A DNA stretch of 64,000 bases from Amphiscolops sp. MND2022 (taxonomy: Eukaryota): the NCBI GenBank assembly GCA_964187785.1, contig OZ076409.1:56732001-56796000 (forward strand). Reading direction: 5' to 3'. The notes below the pieces were generated by a model that worked only from the letters and a program-made list of their open reading frames with translations, had not been told where the DNA came from and searched no databases. A program made the position numbers and the translations under genes. Numbering within the stretch: position 1 is the first letter of the stretch; the number at the start of each line of letters is the position of its first letter. This document shows positions 5,031 to 59,343 of this stretch, in pieces.

Positions 5031-5342
5031 TTCGATTTCTTTGTAAATCCGTTTTTTTGTAATTTTTTGTTGTACAATTTTTGTTGTTTGTTTTGATTCT
5101 TCAATTTAGGTTTTTTTACCGCTGAGAACGTTTTTGTGATGAGGATTAAGAAAAGAAATCTTAGTTACCCCAATTCCGCGGCGTGGACGCCGAATAAGCA
5201 GTTCTGTTTCTCTTGAGATGCCTATTTTTTGGCTTTTTGATCCGAATTGCACGAGAGTTTTTTCCACCAATTGCTGGAACCTTTTCAATTTTTTATAGAC
5301 TGCAAGGTCTTTTTTTCAAAGCGCATGAAATTTTTTTCAAGA

Positions 5343-14363: not shown

Positions 14364-14477
14364 TTTGACAGGAATCTCACATTTCCGTGAAAATTTTGAT
14401 GAGATTCTTGGTAATCTTATCAAGAGTAACAAGAAAATACCATTTTGCAAAATCTTGCCAATAGTTTCAAGAAGTTT

Positions 14478-15199
14478 TGTAACGATAAGCGCTGGCGCTT
14501 GAACCGCAACGTAGAATGGAGGAACTAGAACAGCGAATATAATCTGGGACTTAGATCTCCGCGGCCCTAGCTCATTTTCCCTCCGAAGGAGCCAGTCCCA
14601 AGGTGGGGGAACCGTCTTGTTGGAAACTCTCTGGCCTGGTCCTAGTCTGTAATTGCTAAAAGTAACGGGCATCTTGCATGTCTCAAGACCACTGCTCAAT
14701 TAGCCTTTAAAAAGGGGGCTGAAAACGGGAGGATGTTGAGCCATAGTATTGGAGAATCTGATAAAATCGACATCAAAAAGGGGTAACCATAGATGTAAAT
14801 GGGCAGCTCTCGAGCATATCAATCTACTACAACAAGGAAAGCACAACAAGTACAACAATATCGGAAGTTTGAGTTTTTAGTAGGAACGAATTGACCATGG
14901 CTTCCCAGCGCTAGCGCTCGTCACCGCACAGGACGCCGCAGGATCTTCAGGCGAGCATCTGGAACACCGGTTTCTGTTGCCTATGTAGTGTAAACGCCAA
15001 AGACCAAAGATGGGCACTTCACCGTGTTCTAGGGACTGTTTTCTACGTCTTCTCTTCTCGTCGTCTCTCGCGGGGGCGATTTCTGATTTTTGATCTGCTT
15101 TTTTTTGACAGGTCTTTCGTCTGGAGCATGTTTGAGTGCCACGTCAGATTTGAACGAATTTTTGCTTCGAAAATTTTGACATGGGCAGTTACCGTTACA
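14478..15199 (-). repeat. 3' LTR of element A (722 bp)
   Basis: TGTAACG...CGTTACA inverted termini; no difference from 32634-33355 found by eye. Confidence 0.97.
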
Positions 15200-15208
15200 T
15201 CACTCCCC
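15200..15208 (-). promoter_or_regulatory. Polypurine tract of element A
   Basis: GGGGAGTGA on the minus strand abutting the 3' LTR; identical in element C (52373-52381). Confidence 0.8.
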
Positions 15209-15971: not shown

Positions 15972-18389
15972 TTATTGGGCTGAGCTGCGTCGAGCTCGAT
16001 TCTTTATGGCATCATCGGGAGCTCCTGGATTGCTGGCATCTTCCGACGCAACTGACGCTCTGCGTTGAGCAGGAACCACAGTAACTACTGTTTCCGAGTC
16101 GGACAGGTCCTCTGGGAGCGTCAAATCGGCGATTGGCTGCACCAGGATAGTGCTGGGGGTCAGTTCAGCGTCGTGTTCTCCGGTCTGGGGTTGCGATGAC
16201 TGAGGACTGGCTTGTGTCGACGGTGGACTCACAGGCTCTGCCTGCAGGATATGAGTGGGCAAATCCAGAGTCACGGGTCGGTCGATGGGCTGACTTAGTG
16301 ACATGGCCATTGTGGGTGCCAGCATGGTAGGCGCGAACGCCTGTTGTCTCTCGAGTTCAGCTCTACTCTCCACGGCCAAGGATATCCGCTTGGAGACCCA
16401 GCCGGGCTGACTCCAGAGCTCGCAAGCTCGCTTCCATTTGGGGAAGCTGGCAATTTCCAGCTCCAAACAATGTCCTTCCCACTCTGCGCGGGCTTCAGAG
16501 CCTAGCACAGAATTAATCTCATCGTGTTGGACGATAGACATATCCCCTGACATCGTCATCTTGGCTTGCGGTCGCCAGGCAGCTTTTCTTGGGAACGGAG
16601 TCACACGGCTCTGCAGGTTCCTCTGACGAGTCTGAGCTGCTCCTTCAATCCAGTTTGGGATTTGAGTCAATTCCATATACTGGATTTGTCGATTGAAGGC
16701 TTCAGGGGCGCGACCCACGGGTTTTGCCCTAGGCCATCCCAGTGGCTCCTTCCAGTAGTGATTTGGGAAAGTGATGCATTTGAAAGCGTACAGGGGATCT
16801 ACAGGTGGACCAGCACTAATGCTGGCTCGGATCACCTTGCGTATGAATTCCTGCGACCAGGGGAATCTAAAGGGGACTCCATTCAGGCTGAGAGGTGCGG
16901 AGTACCAGTTGACTGGGCCGTATTCTCGTGGCAAAGGGCACGCTTTTCGTGTGCGAGCACGCAACAGACCCATCAAATTCTCTTCTAGTTGTTTCTCCGA
17001 CTTCAAGGTGGTGTACCCGTGCGGCATCTCGCCACTCAATACAGCCTGCACGATTCGCTGATAGGTTAGTGGGGGCCGTCCTTGGAGATAGGTGCAGAAG
17101 GAGACCATATGCACCTGTACTGTTCTCGCCAATGGTTTGGTGGGATACCGGCACACACCGACCGCACCGAAGATTGGAGCCAAGACGGAAGCCATAACGG
17201 CCACGAAGTCCTCCACTTCGGCCAGAGTCAAATCGGCGATTTGCTGGGGCATGGGGAATCCCGCCGTTTCCGCAGGGAGTTGACGCTCGGAATGGTGGAG
17301 GGGTTGCGATTGATCCACGCCTACGAACAAGCCAGAGGCGAACACTAGGGTGGAGTACAACCAATGTTGGAGGGACGCACGCATGCGTTCTAGCTGGGCG
17401 ACATAATCTTGCTGGTCCTTGGAATTTAGGAGATGACCCCATCGAGTTAGGCTGCGTAATTGTCCCTGCGCGAGGATCAGGTAGCTGTAGAAAGTGACTA
17501 GATCACTAGACACTACCAACTCGACTAACATAGCAAGGGGACCTGCCACAAACTTCGTCGGGCCCATGGCTAGCGCGAGCGCTAACATCTCTCCTACAGT
17601 AGCTTCGCCGATGGTTTCCAACAATTTGTCGGTCTGCACATTGGTGAGCAAGTACTCAGAGGCTATTACGTCGATGTTCCAGCCTAGTCCGAGACTGGTA
17701 CAAAAGGCTTCCAAGGGACAGTTAAGCTCTTGAGCTACCTCGGCCAGGGTCCTGTCCACGAATCTGGACTGATACCATTCGGCATACGTTATTCCGGCGG
17801 CATCTACTTCAGCCTTCAAGTTGGTCGCCTCTGTAGCCACGACGTACCTCATGCCCACGGGCAACTTGACGGGTTCTATTCCCGCGGCAAACCGAATCTG
17901 GGGAATGGTCCTTTCGACCGTGCGTGTGGCAGGCCAGGTTTCAATTTCCTTCACGAGCTCTGCCAGCTCTGCTCGTACGGGAATTTCTTTGTCCTTCCGC
18001 ACCAGCCAGTTGTATCGTCGGACGGCCTCCCGTTCACTCATGTTGGATGCTCGCATGACGCGATTCCCGTCCAAGTCGAAGGCCATTCGCCCCATACACA
18101 TTCCATGATCGAACAGTATGGCGTCGTCGATAGTCAGTTGTGCATTTCCTGATCGTTCCACAGCGATTAGTACTCTTGACACGGCAGCAAAGAAGGCGGG
18201 GTATGACAATGCATCGGGGCGTAGGTCTCCTCGATCAACTTCGGCGCGCTTTGCATACTTCAGACAGGATGTACACAAATTGCTGCAAGCTTCGTTGCCA
18301 ATACATGAATCCCGGCGGGGATGCGAAGAGCGCGAGCGCTCCCAGACGACCCCGAAGGATCCCTGCTGCACGCTCCATTGCATCTGCAA
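15972..18389 (-). CDS. Accessory ORF3, C-terminal part (real coding frame from ~18240; end of SGNH-like domain plus ~720 aa unknown region)
   Basis: 805-aa ORF, highly similar to element C 53114-55379; joined to 18235..20220 by a frameshift at ~18240. Confidence 0.8.
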   Translation of the reverse strand: MQMQWSVQQGSFGVVWERSRSSHPRRDSCIGNEACSNLCTSCLKYAKRAEVDRGDLRPDALSYPAFFAAVSRVLIAVERSGNAQLTIDDAILFDHGMCMGRMAFDLDGNRVMRASNMSEREAVRRYNWLVRKDKEIPVRAELAELVKEIETWPATRTVERTIPQIRFAAGIEPVKLPVGMRYVVATEATNLKAEVDAAGITYAEWYQSRFVDRTLAEVAQELNCPLEAFCTSLGLGWNIDVIASEYLLTNVQTDKLLETIGEATVGEMLALALAMGPTKFVAGPLAMLVELVVSSDLVTFYSYLILAQGQLRSLTRWGHLLNSKDQQDYVAQLERMRASLQHWLYSTLVFASGLFVGVDQSQPLHHSERQLPAETAGFPMPQQIADLTLAEVEDFVAVMASVLAPIFGAVGVCRYPTKPLARTVQVHMVSFCTYLQGRPPLTYQRIVQAVLSGEMPHGYTTLKSEKQLEENLMGLLRARTRKACPLPREYGPVNWYSAPLSLNGVPFRFPWSQEFIRKVIRASISAGPPVDPLYAFKCITFPNHYWKEPLGWPRAKPVGRAPEAFNRQIQYMELTQIPNWIEGAAQTRQRNLQSRVTPFPRKAAWRPQAKMTMSGDMSIVQHDEINSVLGSEARAEWEGHCLELEIASFPKWKRACELWSQPGWVSKRISLAVESRAELERQQAFAPTMLAPTMAMSLSQPIDRPVTLDLPTHILQAEPVSPPSTQASPQSSQPQTGEHDAELTPSTILVQPIADLTLPEDLSDSETVVTVVPAQRRASVASEDASNPGAPDDAIKNRARRSSAQ

Positions 18390-20220
18390 CCACGTTCACT
18401 AAGGACGCTACACTCCCAGGTCTGCGGGTATCTGCCATGAGGGCATCCAGGTTGCGTAGTACCCCTTCGCAAGCCATGTGGTCGATCAGATTTGTGAAGA
18501 CTACACGTCGCGGGGGCGGCTCTCTTAGAGACCCTCTCAAGTTAGGGTCATACATGACCGCGACCATCTCGGCAACCTCAGCGAAGCGGGAGAGTGGCAT
18601 CGTTAATACCAGCACATCGGGCAGAAGGTTGTCGATGGGGAGATCACTCCTAAGTGTCGAGTCTACTGCCACACAGTAGCGCGCACGCTGCAGGGCCGCT
18701 TTCAGAAGGGGCTTCATTGATTTGATGTTGCGAGCATAGCGGGCGTTGGCTTCCCAGGTTTCCCCTTCGTGCAACATGTACCTAGCAGGAAATTGCTCGG
18801 TGAGGTCATGCTGCAGGCGAGCCATATAATTGTTGGGTGTCGCGGGCAGTTGCTCTCGAGCACGCTGTTCCCAGGCTTGCTCACTCATGTCCGCATCACG
18901 GGCACGTAGCGACCGAGTTATCTGAGCCGCAATGGTGATTCTGCTCACTTCTTTCTGGTCGGCGTCAGACGGCGGTGCCCTCCTTCTGATCGCACACGTG
19001 TTCGGGTACAAACACTCCGCCGCCATCCAGATGCGTTTGCTATCGCCAGTCACCACTGTGCCGGATACGTCATCGGACAGGGGAAGAAAGGCGGGAGGAT
19101 TGTTCTCATCGATTGTCTCGGACACCTCCAAGGACATGTTGGCAGAGCCTGTGCCCGAGGGCACAGGACTCGTTTCAGGATTCGCCTCCACACTGCCGTA
19201 GCGGTTGATGGCCTCTTCCAGGGACATCTGAGGCGCGCCTACGCCTAGGTGGCCGACGCGATATGGAGGCCTCACGACCACCACACTTTTCATCTGCGAC
19301 TGGTGGGGTACATCTGCTCGCTTGTCCGGAGGGGGACGACTGGTCGGACTGTCGGTCACGGAATCATGGCGTGTAGCGACGATATTTTCCTCAGTAAGTC
19401 GCTTCCGGCCAGTTTCCTCACGGGGATAGGTCATGGCGCTGGTGCTTGGTCCAGCCGTAGTTTCTGCTTCCATAGACACAGTTTCGGCTAGGGTGGTGGG
19501 TGGGGTGATGCAGCCCGAGGGCTGAGCGGCAGCTTGCAAGTAATGTGTCAATCCGGGAATCCTTTGCTCAACGGCACGAACGAAGTCAGAGGAGTTGGGG
19601 TAGTTGGCGACAGCCTGCAGGGCCACAATCACCGCTTGCTCGCTGGGACTCCGTCCAATCAGATTTAGATTAGGCACTGATGGCGGTTGGGACCCCGAGG
19701 GCTCCCGACTTGAGGCAGGTTGATTGGTAATGTTCTGCGTCGTCGTTGTCCGGGTTCCATATGGTGCCCCATAAGCAATCGAGCTAGAATGCGGCGTCGT
19801 CTGCACTGGATTTGGTGCCGCAATGGAAGGCAGCGATGGGACGTTGACGGGCATCATACGCAGTGATGTTTCTTGTTCGAATCTGGTGCCCTGGCTGGGG
19901 CCATGCACTGCGATTGATCTTTCGTCCAAGAACTGGTGAGTCAGGTCGTGCCCATCCCAGGCATTGTTGGTGCACGTCAAGGTGCGACGATAGCTTGCCA
20001 CCTCCGTGGTGATTGATAAAGATGCATTTGGCAGCATTTGCATCGATTCAAGCTGGGTCAATAGGGCGGCCACCCCAGCTACGGCTACTGGCGAAAGACC
20101 GTCCCGCAGCCTTTCTTCGACATATTGGGCCTGATTGACCCTCTGCGCTCGCGCAGATTCCTGGGGCCTTGCACTATTAGACCCGGTTGCAGGCGCTGAA
20201 TTATTTGGGCAATGGGCCAT
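18235..20220 (-). CDS. Accessory ORF3, N-terminal part (low-complexity region then degenerate SGNH/GDSL-like fold)
   Basis: 661-aa ATG-initiated ORF, orthologous to 55370..57370. Motifs YCVAVDST, VVFTNLIDH, LFASPP and (next frame) DLRP resemble SGNH blocks I, III, IV and V. Confidence 0.8.
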   Translation of the reverse strand: MAHCPNNSAPATGSNSARPQESARAQRVNQAQYVEERLRDGLSPVAVAGVAALLTQLESMQMLPNASLSITTEVASYRRTLTCTNNAWDGHDLTHQFLDERSIAVHGPSQGTRFEQETSLRMMPVNVPSLPSIAAPNPVQTTPHSSSIAYGAPYGTRTTTTQNITNQPASSREPSGSQPPSVPNLNLIGRSPSEQAVIVALQAVANYPNSSDFVRAVEQRIPGLTHYLQAAAQPSGCITPPTTLAETVSMEAETTAGPSTSAMTYPREETGRKRLTEENIVATRHDSVTDSPTSRPPPDKRADVPHQSQMKSVVVVRPPYRVGHLGVGAPQMSLEEAINRYGSVEANPETSPVPSGTGSANMSLEVSETIDENNPPAFLPLSDDVSGTVVTGDSKRIWMAAECLYPNTCAIRRRAPPSDADQKEVSRITIAAQITRSLRARDADMSEQAWEQRAREQLPATPNNYMARLQHDLTEQFPARYMLHEGETWEANARYARNIKSMKPLLKAALQRARYCVAVDSTLRSDLPIDNLLPDVLVLTMPLSRFAEVAEMVAVMYDPNLRGSLREPPPRRVVFTNLIDHMACEGVLRNLDALMADTRRPGSVASLVNVVADAMERAAGILRGRLGALALFASPPGFMYWQRSLQQFVYILSEVCKARRS

Positions 20221-20232
20221 TAATGCATAGGT

Positions 20233-20514: not shown

Positions 20515-21807
20515 CTACTTCAGCCCTATAGTTAATATTGATACATATACGCGGCTATGCAAAACCACGTGAATACCAGTACCCTCGAACATGCTCGTTA
20601 GAGTATGGTACAGGTTAACCAACGAGAAAGCCGGTCTCTCGGGATCCAGAATCGGTAGGTGGACCCGTGTGGATCCTTTATCTATCAGGCGCTGTGTCAA
20701 GTGCGCCATGCAACGCAAGTAGTCGTCTGTCAGCAGCGGTGCGCGCTGGTTAGCACGGACTATCAACAGGTGAATACTTTGGTTGGGGTTGGGGTTCACA
20801 TCGGGCGGGATAGTGAGAATCTCGCCCACTTTAGGTCGTAAGGCAAATACATCTTCCATGCCGCACTCCCGCAGCACATATCGCAGGGCGGCAGAGTTGG
20901 TCTTTAGGTCAGCAGGGCATGCTAACACTATGTCGCCCTCGGCCTGCAAGAAATCGGATTCATCGTAAGAGACGTGTTCGGCTGAGTTCGGATACAGGGC
21001 TCCAGGGTAAACAATCTCTCGTCCGGGGCCATTATCGGGGGGCAGACACACGCGAGGGGTACGCCCTTGGACTGCAGCCAGGTCTTGCCACACTGAGCGG
21101 GGCATCGCTCGATTGTCGCTGCCGGCCTTTACCCACGCATCTAAAGTTCCCAGGGCGGCTTTAGGGAACAAGGGGATCTCGAAAGTGTGAGTCCACTCAT
21201 CTAATAGTCGAATTCTGGGATAGGTGGCGAAACATGTGATTATTAGTTCCAGCCACCACGCGAACTTCATTTTGCCTCGGTACCAGTCTATGATATGGAA
21301 GCAAAGTATTAAGTCCACAGTGGTGAGGGTCCTCAGACTCTCCAGACAGGATAACAGATTCAACGGTTCCACCAGCGCCTCCACTCGTGGAGCTGTTACC
21401 AGCAGCCACCAGTGAGGAGCCGGGCTGTATACCCCTCCTGGTTCCACCTGGACTCCATACTTGTCGCATAACGAATCAGCAGTGATGCATCGGACCATCT
21501 GCACAGGTTCCCTTTCAAAATTGAATGGTCCAAACGCAATATTACTAGGCACGGGGGGCAACACCGTGGGCAGGGTAAACTCCAGGCCTTTTCCATCGCT
21601 TGTCCACTCCTTAAACCTAGGACAAGGGGCCTTCGCTACCCCAGGCAGTGACAACTTCTCCAGGATAGTGTCCACAGGGTAGTCTCCGGACCGCTCTACA
21701 GCTGAGTAGGTTTTCTCGGCCCGCACCGTGAGGCGGTACACCAAGTTTTCTCTCTCTTCCGGAGGAACTCCCCGGGCTCCAATGGGAACCCTCCGGTTCT
21801 CATTCAC
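20515..21807 (-). CDS. C-terminal extension of Pol: Cys cluster plus two tandem TARG1/OARD1-like macrodomains
   Basis: The frame is open upstream to ~21900 (RYQLRSKRQPRYKCGTCGLRDCVC) and is continuous with the Pol tail in element C (57658..59343). Motifs VRCITAD..WLLVTAPR..NLLSCLESL and GEILTI..IHLLIVR..GSTRVHLP..FEGTGIHVVL. Confidence 0.75.
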   Translation of the reverse strand: MNENRRVPIGARGVPPEERENLVYRLTVRAEKTYSAVERSGDYPVDTILEKLSLPGVAKAPCPRFKEWTSDGKGLEFTLPTVLPPVPSNIAFGPFNFEREPVQMVRCITADSLCDKYGVQVEPGGVYSPAPHWWLLVTAPRVEALVEPLNLLSCLESLRTLTTVDLILCFHIIDWYRGKMKFAWWLELIITCFATYPRIRLLDEWTHTFEIPLFPKAALGTLDAWVKAGSDNRAMPRSVWQDLAAVQGRTPRVCLPPDNGPGREIVYPGALYPNSAEHVSYDESDFLQAEGDIVLACPADLKTNSAALRYVLRECGMEDVFALRPKVGEILTIPPDVNPNPNQSIHLLIVRANQRAPLLTDDYLRCMAHLTQRLIDKGSTRVHLPILDPERPAFSLVNLYHTLTSMFEGTGIHVVLHSRVYVSILTIGLK

Positions 21808-21886
21808 AGCTAATAAGCAGACACAATCTCGCAGCCCGCAGGTTCCACACTTGTAGCGCGGCTGTCGCTTACTCCTTAGTTGATAC

Positions 21887-24800
21887 CTAAGAGCAGTTGC
21901 AGAAATCTTCTGTTAGCGTCTCTGCAGTTCTGGGAGCTTCCGTTTCGGCCTGGATCGCAGTTTCAGTTTCGGTTTTTCTCGGTGTTTCTTTCTTCCTCGT
22001 TCTTGCCTTCGCTCGAATCAGCCGTTTCTTCTGTGCCTTGGGTGGTCTCCCCCTCCCCCTTTTAAAAGAAGGAGCGGTCCCCGCTCCTGGCGAAGTCTCG
22101 GGAGCATCAGGCAGATCGGGCTGAACGTCGCTGTCGCTGCTGGCAGATTTGAGGGGAATCGGAGGGGCGGTCGGCCATATGGGATAGTTACTAAGAAAGT
22201 TGGTTAGCGAGGGATTCGTCAACAAGGATGCTGAGGTTCCTGGTAACGATGTCTCTTCTTCAGAGGATATCTGCGGAGACGGTGAGCGCACGCGCTCATG
22301 GTCAGAGAACAGTTGGGGTAGTACACGGGCAGGGGATATCGACTGATCCAATGTAGTCGGAGGAGCCGCAGGCTCCACCCTATCCTCGTCAACGGGATTA
22401 GGAGGTATTGGCAACATGGCATCGGATAGTTCGTCGTCTGTACCCGAGGTGGAATAGTCAAATTGCTGATAATGTGGGCGGGAGCCGCCTGCGCGAAGCT
22501 TCGTGCGTAGTCGAGTGTCCATCCAGTGACGTCGACGTGAGGGCAAAGATGCATCGGACGCCTCTGAAAGTAGTTGTTCGGGTTTATACGACGATAAAGA
22601 CTGGTCGTCATCAACTACGTCGACGGAACGTTCAGGTTCGGGGTCCATGAGGACCACCACCTCACCACTGTCCGAGTGTGCAGTAGCAAGTTCAAGTGGG
22701 CCACTGTGGTGCGGTTTGAGACGCTCAAAATGAACCTTTTGACCTGTGTCTAGTACATAGACACGACCGTCCTGAAAAACTTGTACCACTTTGTGCGGGC
22801 CTCGCCAGGCACGCATCAATTTCGGGGAACCCTTTTGCGGTACGTAGCTGCAAAAAACCCAGACGAGCTCGCCTACTTGGTAAGCTCGCGCTTGTATAGC
22901 ACGGTCGTACTTCAACTTTTGACGCAATTGGGCTTGGTGCGTGTTACGCCGTACCAGGTCATGTATTTCCTGTTGGCGAGCCAATACATGATCGACATAC
23001 GCCTCATGCGACTCGAATGATTTGGCTGCAAACTCGGGATACAAGAACGTGAGAGGGATGGCCTTCTCTACGCCACGGGTCAGCATGTAGGGAGAGAAGC
23101 CAGTGGTAGCGTGCCTCGTAGAGTTGTAGGCACCCATGACCTCATCAAGACATTGGTCCCAATCGCGCATACGGCGGGAACAAAAAACTCGCAGTAGGGT
23201 CAGCAGCGTCCGATTTTGGCGCTCGACCAAGCCTTGGGTTCTCGGATGGCTAGCTGTAGAGGTTACTTTGGTAACGTGGGCTGCTTTTAGGAATTCGTTG
23301 GACACCTCGGCAGTCAAATTAGGGGCATTGTCAGACTGCATCCTAGTGGGTGTGCCATGACGGGCGAACCACTTTTGTAACAGCAACCGAGAGGTAGTCA
23401 CAGCGTCGTAGTCATGATGACTACAGGGCACTGCCTCCGCGAACTTGGAGAAATGGTCAATTATGACCAAAATGCCAGTGTTATTACTGTCTGAGGGGCA
23501 GATTTTCAGATGATCATATTGAACCAATTCGTTGAAGTATCCGCTTTGGATGTTCTTCAGATGGAATCGGACGTCGCCAGGCTTATCCCGCACTTGTTGA
23601 CAGGTGAGGCATTGGCCAACGTAACGGCCCACGCTGCGCCGAATACCAGGCCATGTGTGACGTTCTTGAATCCTAGCCACCACTTTGGAGATACCTTGAT
23701 GTCCCATGGCGTCATGCGCGCGGAATAAAATCTCATGCTGGTACAGTTGTGGCATGACGATCATGCACGGACGTTCGTGCAGGGGACGTTGGTTGGGAGG
23801 GTATTGTACGCAAAGTACACCATTCTTGTTGATAAACAGGAGGGTTTTCTTCTGACGGTAGTAGTTGCGTGCGAACTCACGCACGTTCTCGGGAAACACG
23901 TCGTGATCAATAGATTCGTTCAGCACCAACTTTTTGAGTGCTAGCACATGAACATCACGGTTTTGGGCTAGAACCAAATCTTTGATACCATGCACGGTGT
24001 GAGCATGTTCGTGAAGTTCAGTGTTGATATCTTTAAGAGCCATAATTGAGTCGCGCACACCCGAGGGAGTACCTTGCAACGCCACAGGATTCGCCCCGGC
24101 AATAGCATAGACGGTACGCGAGGGAACATTTACGGCATGCGTTGGCAATAGATAATCTTCGCGTGCTTCATCAGTCACATCAATCCAATCCTCAGGGTAG
24201 TCTGGATAGGCATCCTCGTGCAGTTGCAGAGCAAGGGCAGGCGGAGGTGGCAAAGGGGCTGCGAATGCTTTCGCTTGTCTGTCCCTCCTGCTCGCTCGTT
24301 TGGTGCGGCGAAGCACGCGTAGCAATTGGTCGGGAGCCTTAGGCTCCAAGTTCTGCAGGTGCGCAGGTAACTCGGGATGGTTCGGGATGACTCGACCCTG
24401 AAGGTCGAACCATGGGGCAACAGGTAGCTTATCAAATTCGTCAGCTGAAAGAAAGTTCCAGCGTTCGCCCGCAGCTGGCTGCTGTGCAAGCTGTTTTTCG
24501 CGGCATCGGTACTCGTTGGTTCGTTTGCTCAAGCCATCGGCGTTTCGATGTTGGGTCCTTGGGCGGTGTTCCACGCGAAAGTGATATTTCTCCAGGGTCA
24601 TGATCCATCGGCCGATTAACGCTTGATCCGTGGAGTAGGTTTTCAACCAGGACAAAGCTTGGTTGTCCACCCGCAGGGTGAACTTTCGGGGACATAAATA
24701 GCTGTGGTTCTTCACTATGAAATAGTAAGCGGCGAACATTTCAAGTTTGGGGGCTCCGTATTTGGCTTGTGTGGTGGTGAGCTTCTTGCTACCGTAAACT

Positions 24801-27586
24801 ATCGGTCTCAGGCGTCGTTCACCCGGAGGACCTTGCCACTGGTGCAGGATACCCGAAATGGCGACAGCACTAGCGTCAGTGTCTAACACAAACTCTCCTT
24901 CGGAATCAGGCTGCGCGAGCGCAGTTGCCTCGATCAGGGCTTTTTTGATCTCATTGAATGCGGTTTGTTGCTCAGGACCCCAGGCGAAGGTGGCATTCAG
25001 TCCAGTGACGGCGTGCAGGGGTGCAACCAGCTTGGCGTGCCAAGGAATGAACTCGCGATAATAGTTGGCAAATCCAAGGAAACTCTGCATTTCCGTCTTG
25101 TTGCGGGGAATTTCCCAATCACGCAACTTGACGACGGCTTTTGGGTCGGGCTTCACTCCTTCTGCGGATACCACTCGTCCCAAGTACTTGATTTCCGATT
25201 TCATGAAATCGCATTTGGCCACGCGCATTTTGAAACCGGCTTCACGGAGACATTCAAAGACTTCACGCAGACGTACCATATGGTCTTCCACAGTCTCCGT
25301 GGCAATCACGATATCATCAATGTAGGCCATGACCATGCTGCCCTCACGATTGACAATATTCCTTAGCGCACGCGCTATTGACCGTTGAAACGTGGCAGAT
25401 GCATTGCACATACCAAATGGCATTCGCCGCCACTCAAAAAGTCCTAATTCGCAAGCAAAAGCGGTTTTGTGGCGATCCGCTTTGCGCACGGGAATTTGCC
25501 AAAAGGCCCAAGCAAGGTCTATGCTGGTATAGATCTTTGCTTTGCCTAGCCGTGCCAGGCTTTCATCGATGCGGGGCAAGGGATAAGCATCCTTAATGGT
25601 TACCTCATTTAACGGGCGGAAGTCGCAGCAAAAGCGCAACTCCCCGTTTTTCTTTTTCACCATTACAATGCCGCTCGCCCAGGGGGACAGCGAGGGCTGT
25701 ATCATTCCCAGAGCTAATAGGTTCCGTACCTCCTGATTGGCACGTTCGGCCTTCTCAGGAGACATCCGGCGAGCACCTTCGCGATGCGGTACAGCCCCTG
25801 GTTCCACCTCCACGGTGTGCTTAGCGATAGTGCACCGACCGATGTCTGCTTTGTGTTTCATGAACAGCTCATCGAATTCATCGAGGAGGTTACGGAGAGA
25901 TTCGCAGGCGCTAGCGCCCCACAAATCCTTGACCGCCTTGAGCTGAGATTCCGGCCCAGGAATCGGAGCCATTAGCTCTGGGTCTGCTCGTTTGCGAATC
26001 TCGCGCTCCGATAGTCCTGCCTCGCTAGGGTCAGTAGAGGACAAAAACTCAAATTCGGAAGAAGAGGTTAACTCAGAAGCAGTAGATAGATTCACTTCAC
26101 TATAAACTTTATGAACAAAATTTGCACGACCGTCGTCGGCGTCAGTTTTAGTGCCGGTTGTAGTGGGAGAGTCCAAACATTGAGGTACTGCTTGGTATAC
26201 TACCGTTACGGGTACTACGGTGCCCAGTTGTACACCACACCGCATACGTTGAGGGTTGCTGGTGAGATTTATCAGACTCACAAAGAGTGTTCCTGTCTCA
26301 CTGACAGTGGCCACGCTGTCCTCTAAAAAGACGACATTGTGCAACGTAGTGTCAGACAAAGAGGCATTGAGCGCTACGCTTTGAAAAATCAGCGGCTCTA
26401 GTGTGTTGGTGACGAGCTTGGCTCTAGCCACCGCTCGTTCAAAAGGTTGCAGGACCAAATCACTGTCCAAAACGACTGGAGTAGCTATTGAAGTGTCACC
26501 TACCTGTGCGTGAGCATGATGCCACACAGGCTTCACTGGTGCTCGCACCACAATCTTCATAGATGTTAGATCCACTAACACCTGGTAGGAGCGAAGAAAG
26601 TTCCGGCCAAGTAGGAAGTCTTCCACGCCCATTGCGTCATCTACCACCACAAAGTTCGTTTCAAGTTCGTATCCTCCCAGCTGGAAATGGATGTGTTCTG
26701 CGAGGCCGTAGGTTTTTATTGTCTTCCCGTTGGCTGCGTATAGGTCAACTTGGTAGGGTTTAAGTACCGTTCCAGTTCGAGCTGCCACTCTGTTGAAGGC
26801 GGAAAACGTCAGTATGGAGACGCCCGAGCCAGTGTCCACCAGTCCTCGCAGCGGAATAGGTGCTGCATGAGGCACCACGAAAGAGACCACGAGCGACGCA
26901 CGCTCATCTATACGCGCTTCGCCGGTGGGCTCCTGGTGATTGATGTTATAGCATTTGAGCTCCTGGGGACCCAGACAAATGCCAGGGGGAAACACATCCA
27001 CCACCACACAGGCTTCGAACTTCATGTCCACTCCATCCATTGAAGCGCAGACTGGCACTGGGGAATACGTTGTCAGAGTCGCAGACTCTCCCGGAGCGTA
27101 CCATTCTTTCGGTCGAGGTAACTCGTTTCGTTTATAGAGGATAGATAATTCGACCCATAGCTTCGCCAGAGTTAGCGTCGGCCTACGTGTTTGCTCAGCT
27201 GCCAGCAACAGGTGAATTGAAATCAGTGTACGTCCTTGCGGATCGAACGTTGTGGGTTCCAAGCAGGTTTGAACTTGCTTAGCACCACAAGTGAAAGTCA
27301 TCGGAGTGTGGAACGCAGGCGGTTCCGCTGGATGTAGCATCAACACACGGGTATCTTCCAAAGGTACGGTGTGCGCGGCGATGCCAGCCGATTCAACCTC
27401 AGCCCACCGATTGTAGGCCAACTCTTCATTGGGTTTCGGCGCATGGGAGTGCTCTCCACATTGCACTTCCGCCTGATCAAAAAGGCCACAGCTCGCGCAT
27501 TGATAGATCCCTGGATGACCTTCAAGGATACCATCGGTCGTGTCTTCCGTGGTCACCTTCACGCCCTCTGGTTCGGAGGCAGTCAT
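21887..27586 (-). CDS. pol: Pol polyprotein (degenerate PR + PR, dUTPase-like region, RT, RNase H, integrase, AT-hook tail)
   Basis: LVDTGSG and LLGRNFL (protease); YIDD at 25313-25324; RNase H LDTDAS/VDNQAL; integrase H-H-CLTC, YDHL/QSDN/VER, GPH; KRGRGRPPK. The frame extends upstream to ~27710 and includes CFHCGQNGHFAREC. Confidence 0.95.
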   Translation of the reverse strand: MTASEPEGVKVTTEDTTDGILEGHPGIYQCASCGLFDQAEVQCGEHSHAPKPNEELAYNRWAEVESAGIAAHTVPLEDTRVLMLHPAEPPAFHTPMTFTCGAKQVQTCLEPTTFDPQGRTLISIHLLLAAEQTRRPTLTLAKLWVELSILYKRNELPRPKEWYAPGESATLTTYSPVPVCASMDGVDMKFEACVVVDVFPPGICLGPQELKCYNINHQEPTGEARIDERASLVVSFVVPHAAPIPLRGLVDTGSGVSILTFSAFNRVAARTGTVLKPYQVDLYAANGKTIKTYGLAEHIHFQLGGYELETNFVVVDDAMGVEDFLLGRNFLRSYQVLVDLTSMKIVVRAPVKPVWHHAHAQVGDTSIATPVVLDSDLVLQPFERAVARAKLVTNTLEPLIFQSVALNASLSDTTLHNVVFLEDSVATVSETGTLFVSLINLTSNPQRMRCGVQLGTVVPVTVVYQAVPQCLDSPTTTGTKTDADDGRANFVHKVYSEVNLSTASELTSSSEFEFLSSTDPSEAGLSEREIRKRADPELMAPIPGPESQLKAVKDLWGASACESLRNLLDEFDELFMKHKADIGRCTIAKHTVEVEPGAVPHREGARRMSPEKAERANQEVRNLLALGMIQPSLSPWASGIVMVKKKNGELRFCCDFRPLNEVTIKDAYPLPRIDESLARLGKAKIYTSIDLAWAFWQIPVRKADRHKTAFACELGLFEWRRMPFGMCNASATFQRSIARALRNIVNREGSMVMAYIDDIVIATETVEDHMVRLREVFECLREAGFKMRVAKCDFMKSEIKYLGRVVSAEGVKPDPKAVVKLRDWEIPRNKTEMQSFLGFANYYREFIPWHAKLVAPLHAVTGLNATFAWGPEQQTAFNEIKKALIEATALAQPDSEGEFVLDTDASAVAISGILHQWQGPPGERRLRPIVYGSKKLTTTQAKYGAPKLEMFAAYYFIVKNHSYLCPRKFTLRVDNQALSWLKTYSTDQALIGRWIMTLEKYHFRVEHRPRTQHRNADGLSKRTNEYRCREKQLAQQPAAGERWNFLSADEFDKLPVAPWFDLQGRVIPNHPELPAHLQNLEPKAPDQLLRVLRRTKRASRRDRQAKAFAAPLPPPPALALQLHEDAYPDYPEDWIDVTDEAREDYLLPTHAVNVPSRTVYAIAGANPVALQGTPSGVRDSIMALKDINTELHEHAHTVHGIKDLVLAQNRDVHVLALKKLVLNESIDHDVFPENVREFARNYYRQKKTLLFINKNGVLCVQYPPNQRPLHERPCMIVMPQLYQHEILFRAHDAMGHQGISKVVARIQERHTWPGIRRSVGRYVGQCLTCQQVRDKPGDVRFHLKNIQSGYFNELVQYDHLKICPSDSNNTGILVIIDHFSKFAEAVPCSHHDYDAVTTSRLLLQKWFARHGTPTRMQSDNAPNLTAEVSNEFLKAAHVTKVTSTASHPRTQGLVERQNRTLLTLLRVFCSRRMRDWDQCLDEVMGAYNSTRHATTGFSPYMLTRGVEKAIPLTFLYPEFAAKSFESHEAYVDHVLARQQEIHDLVRRNTHQAQLRQKLKYDRAIQARAYQVGELVWVFCSYVPQKGSPKLMRAWRGPHKVVQVFQDGRVYVLDTGQKVHFERLKPHHSGPLELATAHSDSGEVVVLMDPEPERSVDVVDDDQSLSSYKPEQLLSEASDASLPSRRRHWMDTRLRTKLRAGGSRPHYQQFDYSTSGTDDELSDAMLPIPPNPVDEDRVEPAAPPTTLDQSISPARVLPQLFSDHERVRSPSPQISSEEETSLPGTSASLLTNPSLTNFLSNYPIWPTAPPIPLKSASSDSDVQPDLPDAPETSPGAGTAPSFKRGRGRPPKAQKKRLIRAKARTRKKETPRKTETETAIQAETEAPRTAETLTEDFCNCS

Positions 27587-27602
27587 TGGTTTTCGGGCCT
27601 GG

Positions 27603-29930
27603 TCACGATTGGGGCACTCGCGAGCAAAATGTCCGTTTTGCCCACAGTGAAAACAAGCACCTACTGGCGCTCGGACGGGAGCTGGGACAGCCGGAGCTGG
27701 GACATTTTGGGGGGGGCGCCGGAGGTGGCAAGACGCCCTGCGGCATAACCATCTTGTTCGGCGGTAGTGGTGCGAAAGGATGAGGTCTAGACCTCATGGC
27801 TAATCGGGGATCATAGGGTTGTTGAGGTTGGGTGGGTCTGGGACGATTGCGTTGCAGCTGACGTGTGGTAAATCGCAAGGACTCCACGGTAGGGGGTTCG
27901 GTAAGAAAAGTTTCCGAGGCGTATACTATAGCAAGTTCACGCCTCAACACTGGATCTCGCACACCTTCCATGAAGCGTTGCAGGATTTCATAGCGTTTCG
28001 TAGTGATACTTTCTTGCGGGAACCCTTGGCTCCTGAGACCCTCTAAAGCGTCTAAGTACTGCATCCAGTCTTCTTTTTCTTGTTGGACGCGGCCTTGGAA
28101 AGTCTGCCGCACCTGCATGCGATTTCCTCCCGCGCCAAATCGACTAGATAGCAGCTCGAACACCTTCTCGGGGGTGTCACGTTCAGACTCTGCCTTGTTG
28201 ATAATGTAGTTGCGAGCCTCACCCTCGAGGTGACCGATAATACTCCAGGCCCGATCTTCGGCCGAGATTTTGGTTTGGATTCTTTTTAAGTATCGCTGCA
28301 TCACTAGGATCCAGCCATCAATAGATCCATCCTTAGAGCCTCGATACACACTGGGTTTGGTCTGAGCCAGGTCACGTCCCGCAAGTAACGGTGCTAGTTC
28401 TTTGGACATTGCTTTGGAAATGGCGGCAGTGAACCTCAATTGTTCAGGAGAAATGACTTCAGCCTCTCCTTCTTTAGGCGCCACATCATCGGTGCCGTCG
28501 TCACTGCCATGCGTAGCTCGCACTGAGAGGTTCGTCACGTCTTCTTTCCTGCGAGTGCTGCTCGCGCAAGGAGCGCCCGAGGGCATCCCGTCCTCAGCTG
28601 TCCAGTCGGCGGTCAGATACATGGAGTCCGTTCCAGAAACCATGGTAGGTGCCGTCACATATGCAGCTCCATCGGTCTGGGACCCTAGTGTGGCCTTAGT
28701 ACAGGATAAATCAACTTCGGTAGAAGTATCTAGATAGATAGGTGACATCGGGTCCACACCTTGGTCTCGGGTGGCACTTCGAACTATGGAGGATGTCATT
28801 TGGCTCATCGACGAGGAGTCGTGGGGCCCTCTTACCTGCACCCGTGCAGGTTTGCGCTCCACAGCAGCCAGGATGGGCACAGGATCCCTGGTTCGGGCTT
28901 CAGGCGTTGTCGACTTGGAGGTGCTGGGCTTCAATACGCTCGCCAACTCGGGTTTTGTTGCCTGACTCCGGTGCGATGATTCCGTGGCCTTCATTGAATC
29001 CGCGATCGGCACACCTTCAGCGGCACCAGCTTGTCGTGGGAGGGACCTTTCGCGCCTCATGATGTTGATAGCATTGAGCACAGTGTGCATTTGGTTACTC
29101 AAATCATTGATCTGGGTTTCCACACGAAGTTCACGGGCCATCAGAAGGTCATTCATCTCACCCATTCTGTATCCTAGTGCATCTACGCGAGCGCTCTGCG
29201 TATTCTGCGCGGTTCGCAGTTGATCACTGACCTGCAGACCTTCTCGCATCGTTGTCTGCAATGTTCTCATATTTTCTGCGATGGCACGGTGTTGGTCATT
29301 GCATCCAGCACGAGTGCTAGCCAGTTCAGCTAAGGCACGTTGGGTCTCGGCTTGGGCTTCCAATATTGCTGCTTTGTACACCGAAGATCGTTGGGATGAT
29401 GCCACTGAACCTGCCACGCTCCTCTTACGAGGCACCTCAACTTGACGTTCACCTACATTTATCATGGGTGGTCGCACTTTCTTGTGTTTGCCATAAGCAC
29501 AAACTCTAGTGTTACTTCGAGTGACTCCAGTCCCTTGCGGTCTCGCACCACTCGGGTTTTCCGAGTAGGTAAGATCATCATCCACCGTGATTTGTAGGCG
29601 AGAGCTCATTTGCTCCCCTAGGGGTGCGCGAGAGCACCCTTCCTCAGCTGCAAGTTCGTTGGTCACGTTTGAGTTGGGCCACTCTTCCTCTGCTTCATTG
29701 GCTCTTTCACGACAGGTTTCTTCGACCCATTGTTCGGTTCGACGAGAGCTTCCAGATGCAACGGAGCCCTCGGAGGGAGGGACCATGGCGGCCAGTTCCT
29801 CCTTTCGTTGTTGCTCGATAGTGACTTCGTCAGACATTTCGTCTGAAAAATGCGAACCGTCCATTGTGGATCCTATGGTCACCCATGACTGCGAACTCAT
29901 GTCAAGCTTTTCCAGGCCTGGTAGGACCAT
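27603..29930 (-). CDS. gag: Gag (long N-terminal extension, coiled coil, capsid-like domain)
   Basis: 775-aa ORF upstream of pol; retrotransposon capsid motifs YRGSKDGSIDGWI, LEGEARNY, RVQQEKEDWMQY. The CCHC knuckle lies in the +1 frame beyond the G8 run at 27709-27716. Confidence 0.88.
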   Translation of the reverse strand: MVLPGLEKLDMSSQSWVTIGSTMDGSHFSDEMSDEVTIEQQRKEELAAMVPPSEGSVASGSSRRTEQWVEETCRERANEAEEEWPNSNVTNELAAEEGCSRAPLGEQMSSRLQITVDDDLTYSENPSGARPQGTGVTRSNTRVCAYGKHKKVRPPMINVGERQVEVPRKRSVAGSVASSQRSSVYKAAILEAQAETQRALAELASTRAGCNDQHRAIAENMRTLQTTMREGLQVSDQLRTAQNTQSARVDALGYRMGEMNDLLMARELRVETQINDLSNQMHTVLNAINIMRRERSLPRQAGAAEGVPIADSMKATESSHRSQATKPELASVLKPSTSKSTTPEARTRDPVPILAAVERKPARVQVRGPHDSSSMSQMTSSIVRSATRDQGVDPMSPIYLDTSTEVDLSCTKATLGSQTDGAAYVTAPTMVSGTDSMYLTADWTAEDGMPSGAPCASSTRRKEDVTNLSVRATHGSDDGTDDVAPKEGEAEVISPEQLRFTAAISKAMSKELAPLLAGRDLAQTKPSVYRGSKDGSIDGWILVMQRYLKRIQTKISAEDRAWSIIGHLEGEARNYIINKAESERDTPEKVFELLSSRFGAGGNRMQVRQTFQGRVQQEKEDWMQYLDALEGLRSQGFPQESITTKRYEILQRFMEGVRDPVLRRELAIVYASETFLTEPPTVESLRFTTRQLQRNRPRPTQPQQPYDPRLAMRSRPHPFAPLPPNKMVMPQGVLPPPAPPPKCPSSGCPSSRPSASRCLFSLWAKRTFCSRVPQS

Positions 29931-31146
29931 TACACAATGCCAATGGCAGAGTAGGTGTCAACGATTCGGACGTAGCCTTTGAAGAAGCCTCGAAAAACGC
30001 GGGATTGGTCGAGTCGCTGTTAGCTTTAGGCTCGTCTCGGTGTGGACTTAAGAAATTTGACTGTTTCACAACGTCCCAAATTTCTCGAAATGCGTTTTAA
30101 GGCTCGTAGGCTGTTCAAATTTACACAGCGCTTTTCCACAAGCACACTGGGCCAGAAAATCAACCTGGTTCGGGGCAAAACGTCTCCGGTCACTCACAGG
30201 AAGAATTTCAAAGATTTTTTGGATTTTCCAAAATTTGCACTACAACACTCAAAAGGCTCGTGTGTGCGCTGGAGGCGTTGTATCAAGCCCAAATTTGACC
30301 AGCAGATCTTAGGTACGTGTAGGTTTACGAAAATAAACACAGTTTTGAGCTGCGCCCCTTCTACACAGTTTCGCCTAGGTATAGACGTGCGGTACCACTA
30401 TGTACCAAAATACACTGTTTTTCACGTCTTTTTCAAGATTGCGGTCCACTGCAAAAATCTAGCAAGCTCAAATTCTCTGCAACAACGTAGGAACTAGCAC
30501 AGGCTACGATGATAGGCTGCAATATGGCCCCACCCGTCGGCTAAGGTGCCCGGGTTACTTGGATAAATTAAGAAAAAACTGCCTTTTTGCGCACTTTTTT
30601 GGGCGCCGCGTTTTTCCTATTTTCTCAACAGGTACCGCACAGATCGGCACCAAACTTGGTAGTTTATGCCAGTGGGCACCTACAATGCCACTGATATTGT
30701 CAAATTGAAGCGCAAGCGCTTATTTGAAGTCCCGACCTACTATGTACGTTGTACACAAAAAACACTGTTTTTGACGACTTTTTTCACAAATTGACCAAGA
30801 GGATCACCTCAGGAAGTAATACGGCGGGTAAAATGGGACCAGCGTGTCGCCCCGCTATCCGTAGCACTGGGATAAACCCTCTATTGGTTGTGCCCGTTAG
30901 GTATAAGGCACTGACGGTCTTGCAGTTTTGGATTTTTTCGGCTTTTTCAGCTTCTCTGGAGTCAAAACGTCAGAGAGCTTTTCTCGACTTTGGGGAACGA
31001 TACGCCCACCAAAATTTCGGCACTAACGTTACTTTCTGTGGTGGTTACGAAAATGCAACCACTTTTTGGCTAGGGTTCAGGAATCGATGACCCGACCCTA
31101 GCTCAGAGACAGTCCGGTTTTGTGGAAAATTGATCAGATTCAGTGC

Positions 31147-31420: not shown

Positions 31421-32600
31421 TTCAGACTCGCTCTGGTCCACTAAGCTTCACCCTCAAGACTTTCAGACAATGCACTTTCTATGCCTAAAAACACCTTAAA
31501 TTACCGGTTTTTTTGCACCGTGTCAGCCCCAGGCTGCCTGAATCCGCTGCAAAAGTTACAGTTAGTGTCCCGTGGGTTTACTACGCTTGACAAAACACTG
31601 TACACTGCTTTTTCATACTTCTACACCAGTGTACGCCTGTGTTTCTGGGTGCCATTTTGGTCAAAATTCCACTTTTTTGCAATTTTCTGGTGCTAGATCG
31701 GCACTTTTATCACAACCAAAGGCTAAATTACGGCCTTCTGTGCCTCGTAATAGCTTTCTCGAGCCTTGCAGCTGCTTTTTACAACACTTTTCACGAAGTT
31801 TTCCTGGCTCCGTTGAGCACAAGTGCTCAAAACCACGAAAAACACGAAAAAAACGCAAAATCAGGGTTTTTTCACGCAAGTGCTATCTTTTTTGCAGCAA
31901 AGCACTTCGTAGGGTGTCGTTACATCTACAACAAAACATTACTGACCTGCACCAACGATTCCCCGTCGAAAAAGGTGCATTTTCAAAAATTTCACCGACC
32001 ATGAGCCATTTGAGCGACGCGTCCGGTCACAGGGGGTGCACCTTCACCACGCTTTTTCTCCACATCCAGACCAGATAGAGACACGCGGGTTGGACCATTA
32101 GCATCGTCTGCAATTGCACTTGCTGTCCACCAAAAACCATACCTCTAGGACGTCTCCACGAGAAATGGGAGTAGGAAGTAGGCAACACACAATTTGACTT
32201 CCCCTTCGCCTCGCTGGTTCATGGTCAGCCATCCACCAGTCACCCTCTTGCATGGCATAAAATGGCTGAAAATAGCTTGCAAAACCTGTTAAACACCCGT
32301 AGCCACGTGCTACGGTCTTCAGCACCTGCAAAAAGATACCCGCTGATGGGCACACAACACATCACACAAAATTATCGATTTCCTTCCAAAACACCTAAAA
32401 ATACCATTTTCGCACCTGAAAACGTGATTTTTTCGGGTTTTCTCTGGTTCAACGCTTCTCCCAGTTCCAGTAGAATGTCACACGACTAAAAAAGGGCAAA
32501 ACTCTGCTTCTCTCTCCTTCGTCAGAGTCGAAACGGGCTTGGCGCTGATTACCAGGGGGCCAGATCTTTTAAAAACCGCTAGGGAAAGCTTCCCAAGACG

Positions 32601-32618
32601 ATCCCTCTGTGGTCGCCA
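32601..32618 (-). promoter_or_regulatory. Primer-binding site of element A, tRNA-Arg type
   Basis: TGGCGACCACAGAGGGAT on the minus strand, resembling the complement of a tRNA-Arg(UCG) 3' end (...UCCC-x-GUGGUCGCCA); lies 15 nt from the LTR. Confidence 0.75.
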
Positions 32619-32633
32619 AAAAATGAGGTTCTA

Positions 32634-33355
32634 TGTAACGATAAGCGCTGGCGCTTGAACCGCAACGTAGAATGGAGGAACTAGAACAGCGAATATAATC
32701 TGGGACTTAGATCTCCGCGGCCCTAGCTCATTTTCCCTCCGAAGGAGCCAGTCCCAAGGTGGGGGAACCGTCTTGTTGGAAACTCTCTGGCCTGGTCCTA
32801 GTCTGTAATTGCTAAAAGTAACGGGCATCTTGCATGTCTCAAGACCACTGCTCAATTAGCCTTTAAAAAGGGGGCTGAAAACGGGAGGATGTTGAGCCAT
32901 AGTATTGGAGAATCTGATAAAATCGACATCAAAAAGGGGTAACCATAGATGTAAATGGGCAGCTCTCGAGCATATCAATCTACTACAACAAGGAAAGCAC
33001 AACAAGTACAACAATATCGGAAGTTTGAGTTTTTAGTAGGAACGAATTGACCATGGCTTCCCAGCGCTAGCGCTCGTCACCGCACAGGACGCCGCAGGAT
33101 CTTCAGGCGAGCATCTGGAACACCGGTTTCTGTTGCCTATGTAGTGTAAACGCCAAAGACCAAAGATGGGCACTTCACCGTGTTCTAGGGACTGTTTTCT
33201 ACGTCTTCTCTTCTCGTCGTCTCTCGCGGGGGCGATTTCTGATTTTTGATCTGCTTTTTTTTGACAGGTCTTTCGTCTGGAGCATGTTTGAGTGCCACGT
33301 CAGATTTGAACGAATTTTTGCTTCGAAAATTTTGACATGGGCAGTTACCGTTACA
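32634..33355 (-). repeat. 5' LTR of element A (722 bp)
   Basis: Direct repeat of 14478-15199. Confidence 0.97.
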
Positions 33356-33399
33356 TTTCACAACCCATATTGAGAAAGTTGAAAAGGTATTCGGAGATT

Positions 33400-57657: not shown

Positions 57658-59343
57658 CTATTCCGGCCCTATGCTCAGGATGGACACGTACACGCGGTTA
57701 TGCAGCACCACGTCAATGCCAGTGCCCTCAAGCAAATTCGTTAGGGTATGGTACAGGTTCACCAATGAGAGGGCGGGTCGTTCTGGATCCAGTATAGGTA
57801 GGTGGACCCTCGTGGATCCTTTCTCTATCAAGCGCTGTATCAAGTGTGTCATACAACGTAGGTAATCGTCGGTGAGCAGCGGCTCACGCTGGTTTGCTCT
57901 AATTATCAGTAAGTGAATACTCTGATTGGGGTTAGGATTGATATCAGAGGGAATGGTGAGAATTTCTCCCACGTTGGGACGTAGGGAGAACACATTCTCC
58001 TTGCCACACTCCCGTAGCACGTACCGTAGGGCGGCTGAGTTGGTCTCTAGGTCAGCGGGACACGCTAACACCATATCACCTTCTACTTGTAGAAAATCAG
58101 TCACATCATATGAGAGGTGCTCTGTTGGGGCTGGATACAGAGCTCCCGGGTAGATAATTTCTCTCCCCGGCCCATTGTCGGCAGGCAAGCATACGCGGGG
58201 CGTGCGCCCCTGGACTGCAGCCAGGTCTTGCCACACCGAGCGTGGCATCGCACGATTATCACTGCTCGCTTTGACCCATGTGTCCAGGGTGCTTAAAGCG
58301 GCTTTTGGGGAAAGCGAAATTTCGAAAGTATGAGTCCACTCATCCAGCAATCTAATGCGAGGATAATTGGTGAAACAAGTGATGATCAGTTCCAACCACC
58401 ACGCGAACTTCACTTTGCCACGAAACCAGTCTATAATTTGGAAGCAAAGTATCAAGTCCGCAGTAATGAGGGTCCTGAGACCTTCCAAGCAGGACAACAG
58501 GTGCAGTGGTTCCACTATTGCCTCCACTCGTGGAGCAGTAACCAGCAACCACAAGTGCGGTGCTGGGCTGTATACCCCGCCCGGGTCCACGTGAATTCCA
58601 TATTTGTCACCGAGAAGATCAGCGGTGATGCATCGGACCATTTGCACAGGCTCCCACTCGAATTTGAATGGTCCAAACACGATATTGCTGGGTACTGGGG
58701 GCATCACCGTGGCAAGGGTAAACTCTAACCCTTTTCCGTCGCTAGTCCACTCCTTGAATCGGGGGCATGGAGCTTTTGCTACTCCAGGTGATGATAACTT
58801 CTCCAGAATAGTATCCACGGGATATGCTCCATATCGTTCTAGGGAGGAATAAGTCTTTTCAGCCCTCACCGTAAGGCGATGCACTAGATTTTCTCCCCGC
58901 TCCGGAGGAACTCCCCGGGCTCCAGTGGGAACCCTCCGGTTCTCATTGACGGCTAGCAAGCAGACACAGTCTCGCAGCCCACAGGTTCCGCATTTGTAAC
59001 GTGGCTGCCGCCTGCTTCTCAACTGGTATCGAGGGGCTTCAGAAGCCTCGGTCGGCATTGCTGTTTCTGATGGCCTTGTTGTTGGCGTTTTCTCCTTCCT
59101 TGTTCTTGCCTTCGCTCTGACCAGCCGTTTTCGCGTTTTGGGTGGTCTCCCCCTCCCCCTTTTGAGAGAAGGAGCGGTCCCCGCTCCGGGCAATGTTATG
59201 GGAAGAGTAGGCACATTGGACTGAGCGTCGTCATCGTCGGTGGCGGACTTCAGAGGGAGTGAAGGAGCGGCCGGCCAAATAGGGTAGTTGTTGAGGAAAC
59301 TCGTCAGTGATGGATTTGTCAATAATGGGGATGATGTTCCCAA
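57658..59343 (-). CDS. Element C Pol tail: AT-hook, Cys cluster and tandem macrodomains in one frame
   Basis: 561-aa ORF running from NPSLTSFL..YPIWP (Pol tail in A) through KRGRGRPPK and CGTCGLRDCVC to the macrodomains. Confidence 0.85.
   Translation of the reverse strand: MGTSSPLLTNPSLTSFLNNYPIWPAAPSLPLKSATDDDDAQSNVPTLPITLPGAGTAPSLKRGRGRPPKTRKRLVRAKARTRKEKTPTTRPSETAMPTEASEAPRYQLRSRRQPRYKCGTCGLRDCVCLLAVNENRRVPTGARGVPPERGENLVHRLTVRAEKTYSSLERYGAYPVDTILEKLSSPGVAKAPCPRFKEWTSDGKGLEFTLATVMPPVPSNIVFGPFKFEWEPVQMVRCITADLLGDKYGIHVDPGGVYSPAPHLWLLVTAPRVEAIVEPLHLLSCLEGLRTLITADLILCFQIIDWFRGKVKFAWWLELIITCFTNYPRIRLLDEWTHTFEISLSPKAALSTLDTWVKASSDNRAMPRSVWQDLAAVQGRTPRVCLPADNGPGREIIYPGALYPAPTEHLSYDVTDFLQVEGDMVLACPADLETNSAALRYVLRECGKENVFSLRPNVGEILTIPSDINPNPNQSIHLLIIRANQREPLLTDDYLRCMTHLIQRLIEKGSTRVHLPILDPERPALSLVNLYHTLTNLLEGTGIDVVLHNRVYVSILSIGPE

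Follow-up and report, generated by a model that had tools for sequence, protein, structure and literature searches.

The window, by which the whole analysed stretch of 64,000 nucleotides is meant, contains on its minus strand a Ty3/Gypsy element of 18.9 kb, which houses a twin-domain module at the end of its Gag-Pol polyprotein. Pfam finds zinc knuckle, protease, RT, RNase H and integrase in this order; the protease-RT-RNase H-integrase order, flanked on either side by an LTR that has TG...CA ends, assigns the element to Ty3/Gypsy. Its parts, and the corresponding module of a second element, are as follows (window coordinates).

32634..33355, minus strand: 5′ LTR (TGTAAC...GTTACA), 100% identical with the 3′ LTR over a 723-nt match
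14478..15200, minus strand: 3′ LTR, pairing with the 5′ LTR at 32634..33355
33356..33358, no strand: target-site duplication TTT, 3 bp, partner at 14475-14477
27603..29957, minus strand: gag part, PNMA-like (weak)
21887..27793, minus strand: pol part with zinc knuckle, protease, RT, RNase H, 265-aa linker, integrase and low-complexity tail
22037..22063, minus strand: RGRP motif resembling an AT-hook, within the basic tail (Pfam AT_hook at E 0.75, which misses the cut-off)
21887..21912, minus strand: frameshift separating pol from the module, private to the window copy
21817..21849, minus strand: Cys4 motif C-x2-C-x4-C-x-C, a possible zinc site of low pLDDT, retained in 4/4 subfamilies
21550..21753, minus strand: beta-rich extension, co-folded with domain 1 (pLDDT 70-90)
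21196..21549, minus strand: pseudo-macrodomain 1, predicted TARG1-like fold, ∼25 residues shorter
21067..21129, minus strand: helices between the two domains, among them a strongly conserved R-x-V-W-Q-D helix
20551..20985, minus strand: pseudo-macrodomain 2, predicted TARG1-like fold
15972..20232, minus strand: ORF2, split into two pieces in the window copy; an intact copy has it as a single 1430-aa frame
57658..59445, minus strand: module of the second, older element, in frame with the Pol tail

Another frameshift, near 27,700, splits gag from pol in the window copy, whereas intact copies have a single frame. The RGRP motif was retained in all four subfamilies examined. Structure comparison gave no fold match for the beta-rich extension on its own, and Pfam scans of the window element and of an intact copy found no chromodomain after the integrase, the folded C-terminus being assigned to the macro folds described below. 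ORF2 shows motifs that look SGNH-like by eye; it had no match in Pfam, nor in the PDB with a three-row profile, which leaves an esterase fold unconfirmed, and its identity between subfamilies is 25% (L032:1740-6032, L125:5288-9616 and window 15972-20232). The second window element starts at 51643 and is 75% identical to the first.

Some further features were observed. A primer-site-like TGG motif (window 32600-32633) lies ∼15 nt off the LTR end and not adjacent to it, and other subfamilies are alike in this respect. Positions 39124-39299 form a near-perfect hairpin with arms of 88 nt and no spacer, and between 39993 and 46128 exact direct repeats of 211 nt flank 6 kb of sequence whose AT skew is strong, probably another insertion. 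Elsewhere in the genome (G000:C1:34,053,825-34,111,528), five same-strand matches of one subfamily form a tandem array with a spacing of ∼14.05-14.2 kb.

Fusion of the module to the integrase

Pol of the window copy ends at 21887, and the module at 20515..21807 lies out of frame with it, in 21912..20515 on the minus strand. In the second element (57658-59445) the module is in frame with the Pol tail, as the earlier note had described, with older stops upstream of this stretch. The frameshift near 21,900 is peculiar to the window copy: 30 of the 92 module matches found in the 1.07-Gb genome were retrieved, one of them being the window copy itself, and none of the other 29 shared it. Frames of at least 900 aa, long enough to reach the integrase, contained the module in 82 of the 92 matches; 48 matches lay in frames of at least 3100 aa and 39 in a frame of exactly 3193 aa. 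That single 3193-aa frame runs gag-protease-RT-RNase H-integrase-tail-module, and the same intact copy also carries the 1430-aa ORF2. Among subfamilies at 40% and 55% identity, frames of at least 900 aa were found in 60/83 and 71/95 matches, respectively, and in three further subfamilies RT, integrase and module share one frame (one retrieved copy each). Fusion to the integrase is the norm of this family, as the earlier note had proposed, and a stop between the two, which it had set against the fusion, is not typical of the copies. The module read as a stand-alone gene was rejected because of the frame lengths in the copies, and because no ATG occurs in the window frame until domain 1 has begun.

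Predicted folds and altered pockets

AlphaFold2 was run on an alignment of 66 homologs and gave a mean pLDDT of 73 and a pTM of 0.50, so that the placement of the two domains relative to each other is not given by the model. Domain 2 (20985-20551) matched TARG1 (Foldseek E 8.8e-10; Z 17.6, rmsd 2.1 over 137 residues). When domain 1 (21549-21196) was modelled alone (pLDDT 84.5), the top eight Foldseek matches were all TARG1 (E 6e-5 to 7e-4; Z 11.6, rmsd 2.5 over 115 residues), and a search of 48,161 chains independent of Foldseek returned just five at Z ≥ 8, all of the TARG1/DarG/Poa1p class. The 66-row family profile matched only TARG1 in the PDB (five matches, E 0.07-0.1, domain 2). With 18 conventional macrodomains of the same genome as the intact set, hhalign gave 96.5% (E 7e-10) for domain 2 and 42% (E 3e-4) for domain 1, and 78% (E 2e-5) for the two domains against each other; five reversed controls stayed below 1%. 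Macro was not matched in Pfam with the single sequence or with 66 homologs, and phmmer with the single sequence found no match in the PDB. In the ESM Atlas, domain 2 matched unnamed phage clusters (0.91) and a 14%-Macro cluster (0.89), which is a lead only, and domain 1 had no usable match. A macro fold in the linker between RNase H and integrase was rejected (hhalign <1%). According to the predicted models, backed by the profiles, both domains have the ALC1/TARG1-class macrodomain fold. The two TARG1-like folds recognized in the earlier note were thereby recovered nearly where it had placed them, TARG1 being the best match for both, and the motifs quoted in it are present in frame 21912..20515 (minus strand).

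Pocket residues were tallied from 278 aligned rows from 266 proteins (numbering after TARG1 chains), counting at each position only the rows that cover it; the rows are related copies, many of them broken, and are not independent. The equivalent of Asp20, which we take to be the adenine contact of TARG1, is retained in domain 2 (Asp316; 125/141). The other positions of this domain are altered: Gly43 is Ala (A337; 124/133), Lys84 is Arg (R382; 110/116, with Lys in one row), Gly121 is Asp (D419; 91/94), Gly123 is Glu (E421; 81/93) and Asp125 is Pro or Ser (83/91). The second loop has thereby turned from G-C-G-L-D into D-P-E-R-P, in which D-x-x-R is near-invariant. In domain 1, the first glycine loop is deleted, an Asp20 equivalent was not evident in the alignment, Lys84 is replaced by Ala or Ser (Ala in 132/163), and the second loop reads D-x-x-R-G, with Asp at Gly121 (D205; 156/165), Tyr at Gly123 (146/163) and Gly at Asp125 (152/161). 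The register of this loop was taken from MAFFT and from equal strand-to-helix spacing; one profile alignment gives an alternative that sets Gly209 on Gly123. Among 18 conventional macrodomain rows of the same genome, 16 retain Lys84 and Gly123.

Lys84 and Asp125 are described as the catalytic dyad of TARG1, and SCO6735 as active without either of them (PMC9411070, PMC7050489). Because of SCO6735, the main argument rests on the glycine loops and not on the dyad: for TARG1, the exchanges G123E and G43E are reported to abolish both binding and cleavage of ADP-ribose, with RNA binding remaining (PMC5928194). Judged by these residue changes, both domains have probably lost ADP-ribose binding. The replacement of the glycine loops and of the catalytic Lys and Asp, as stated in the earlier note, is thus seen in the alignments, and it supports the view expressed there that the domains are probably non-catalytic.

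Selection, relatives and insertion sites

Comparing the two window elements gave dN/dS values of 0.078 for domain 1 and 0.043 for domain 2; RT stood at 0.021, the C-terminal part of the integrase and the tail at 0.16-0.20. These values come from one pair by a simple counting method, with dS close to saturation. In comparisons with three other subfamilies, where synonymous sites have reached saturation, the domains are at 42-71% protein identity and RT at 78-95%. Purifying selection on the module is strong and extends over subfamilies of as little as ∼40% identity. As the pocket residues are lost and selection nevertheless persists, a new job is likely. The module also persists without ORF2, which is missing downstream in 4/6 subfamily copies. 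The median net charge of the two domains is −2 and −4, compared with +6 to +15 in 14 of the 18 conventional macrodomains of the same genome.

Macrodomains were sought in 109 new integrase relatives. P0322, whose integrase is 53% identical, carries one intact macrodomain. P0332 (integrase 43% identical) also has a single domain (TARG1 E 2.8e-4), with Arg at Lys84 and D-K-W-R-D as its second loop, Gly43 and Asp125 being retained. Only one relative came out of a search for more domains of the P0332 type (2 matches among 445 candidates). In the integrase tree, the tandem clade, P0322 and P0332 fall into one clade (100/100) whose inner order is not settled; constraining P0332 with the tandem clade was disfavoured (AU p 0.033; the grouping was chosen after viewing the tree, and 17/30 rows were used). 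The tree of the macrodomains sets both domains of the module, together with that of P0332, against 11 conventional domains (100/99), a grouping that carries a long-branch warning. Taken from these sequences, a duplication after closure of the pocket is plausible. The integrase tree gives no support to a simple ladder from an intact via a single remodelled to a tandem domain. Direct descent from the env-bearing L041 lineage with its intact domain behind the integrase is likewise unsupported, the RT being just 22-27% identical and in a separate clade. By eye, the C-terminus of P0335, another integrase relative, resembles a still more decayed macro fold; three profiles did not detect macro there at E 0.01.

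Other Gypsy lineages of the same genome (L039/L041, L065-L080, L084) carry a conventional TARG1-like domain in 150/150 scored candidates. Its location varies: it follows the integrase, separates RNase H from the integrase in L077, precedes RT in L078 and is part of an 833-aa ORF in L079. In two members of the intact-domain lineage, L065 and L073, Lys84 was lost, Glu gained at Gly123 and the basic charge lost independently, a convergent closing of the pocket. L042, likewise an element with an intact domain, has a 382-aa antisense ORF (1110-2258, minus strand) and a 783-aa ORF (2919-5270, plus strand) that is env-like by eye. The genome also has a macroH2A-like locus (L037), which makes an animal host likely.

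Target-site duplications were scored in 20 full-length copies, one of which could not be scored. A 3-bp duplication was present in 17/19 and one of 4-6 bp in 0/19 (L085-L137), the cross-pair chance being 4/342. Related subfamilies had 3 bp in 6/6 copies, the second window element included, and the single copy checked of the L041/L042 lineage had 5 bp. A duplication of 4-6 bp is described as usual for LTR elements (PMC8282616); being usual and not a defining trait, it leaves membership in Ty3/Gypsy untouched, and annotation restricted to 4-6 bp would miss such elements. A link between the 3-bp duplication and the module is speculation. No targeting was seen in the flanks of the 20 full-length copies, which are mutually unrelated and of ordinary GC.

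Possible functions and known systems

The reading we favour, tentatively, is that two predicted TARG1-type folds, with ADP-ribose use likely lost, have been kept as a protein-binding module on the integrase. A single TARG1-like domain behind the integrase would have been the ancestor; its pocket would have been closed by the exchanges of Gly121 for Asp, Gly123 for Glu or Tyr and Lys84 for Arg, and the domain would then have been duplicated to give the tandem pair. The pair may dock on a protein, which could be a chromatin or nuclear factor of the host or else the integrase multimer of the element itself; DNA would be held by the two motifs directly upstream, the AT-hook-like one and Cys4. The module would thus fill the place and role of the chromovirus chromodomain. 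Docking on a protein is suggested by the neutral-to-acidic charge, by the position, which is that of the chromovirus tether, and by the retention of the two upstream motifs. Against it, the flanks of the 20 full-length copies showed no targeting, and Asp20 and the conserved Arg at the catalytic site of domain 2 resemble a pocket in use.

The same charge bears on the somewhat doubtful alternative of pseudo-macrodomains that, like the SARS-unique domain (SUD), bind nucleic acid, be it element RNA, cDNA or structured host DNA or RNA. SUD is described as a pair of macro folds that lack glycine loops and bind G-quadruplexes, not ADP-ribose (PMC2674928), the RNA binding that TARG1 G123E retains (PMC5928194) fits this alternative, and from residue 50 to residue 455 there are 18 basic positions with at least 85% conservation; however, 18 acidic positions are conserved equally, and both domains are neutral to acidic overall. 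The pocket-like residues of domain 2 would instead be explained if this domain were still an enzyme or reader with altered chemistry, for which domain 1 would serve as a scaffold and whose target would be ADP-ribosylated nucleic acid or a ligand containing adenosine; we consider this unlikely. The retained Asp20, the Arg at Lys84 and the D-x-x-R, which recurs in P0332 next to a retained Gly43 and Asp125, speak for such a pocket, as do SCO6735, an example of new catalytic residues being tolerated in this class (PMC9411070), and the many sister lineages with intact domains in the genome. Yet Asp and Glu stand in place of the glycines of the diphosphate site, Gly43 is Ala, and G123E is reported to kill TARG1 (PMC5928194).

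The loop changes also weigh against the two roles suggested in the earlier note, tethering to chromatin that is ADP-ribosylated, or acting as a decoy in PARP-based defence. The location behind the integrase suits them, and Gypsy lineages of this genome have captured TARG1-like domains repeatedly, at four positions, which suggests that ADP-ribose matters to these elements. Both roles require ADP-ribose binding, though, and the Glu at Gly123 of domain 2 and the missing first loop of domain 1 argue otherwise; the basic surface is lost as well, which makes either role very unlikely. That the module is a neutral relic of a formerly active domain would account for the absence of catalytic residues and for an evolution faster than that of RT, but it is scarcely credible and largely refuted by the low dN/dS, by frames that stay open in subfamilies with saturated synonymous sites and by the conservation of the new motifs. 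A more far-reaching version of events, and quite an unlikely one, is that a captured ADP-ribose eraser gave rise to pseudo-macrodomains of a novel class, marked by Arg and Asp-x-x-Arg, and was doubled within the integration complex, where it would set the choice of partner and contribute to a geometry of integration that leaves 3-bp duplications, below the length described for LTR elements, the whole path surviving in relatives.

Of the known systems, human TARG1/OARD1 (C6orf130; PDB 4j5q, 4j5r, 4j5s, 2l8r) has the same fold and is the best match of both domains; its class also comprises DarG, Poa1p and SCO6735 (ALC1-like macrodomains). The Asp20 position of domain 2 is shared with it, whereas overall identity is 13-17%, Lys84, Asp125, Gly43, Gly121 and Gly123 are replaced, the first loop of domain 1 is missing, and the domains described here are in tandem, within a retrotransposon polyprotein and not basic. 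The L039/L041 lineage, L077, L078 and P0322 likewise have a macrodomain on an LTR retroelement, often behind the integrase, but a single and intact one, and epsilon-like endogenous retroviruses of fish are said to carry macro-domain ORFs (PMC4977317, citing another paper). A literature search that did not extend to subscription journals, Repbase and bioRxiv supplements found no report of macrodomains on Gypsy integrases or of 3-bp duplications of LTR elements. New here are the tandem, remodelled and selected form and the 3-bp duplication. As intact, half-remodelled and doubled forms coexist, the exaptation of a macrodomain can be traced stepwise with small soluble proteins.

The nearest analogue is SUD (SUD-N/SUD-M of coronavirus nsp3), which is described as tandem macro folds in a polyprotein with the glycine motif and ADP-ribose binding lost (PMC2674928); one SUD domain structure is, by its title, a complex with a host protein (PDB 6yxj). 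SUD differs in not being of the TARG1 class, in being lysine-rich and in reaching no more than Z 6-7 against domain 1, and the likeness is one of analogy, not of family-level homology. A mobile element would parallel coronavirus SUD in retaining the macro fold after closure of the ADP-ribose pocket. Chromoviruses, also Ty3/Gypsy elements, resemble the present family in having captured a host-type domain that ends the integrase, and a tethering role has been reported for MAGGY (bioRxiv 10.1101/2021.11.30.470311); the present family differs in that the Pfam scans found no chromodomain and the 20 flanks gave no sign of targeting. If the pair guides the integrase, it would be a new kind of targeting domain alongside the chromodomains.
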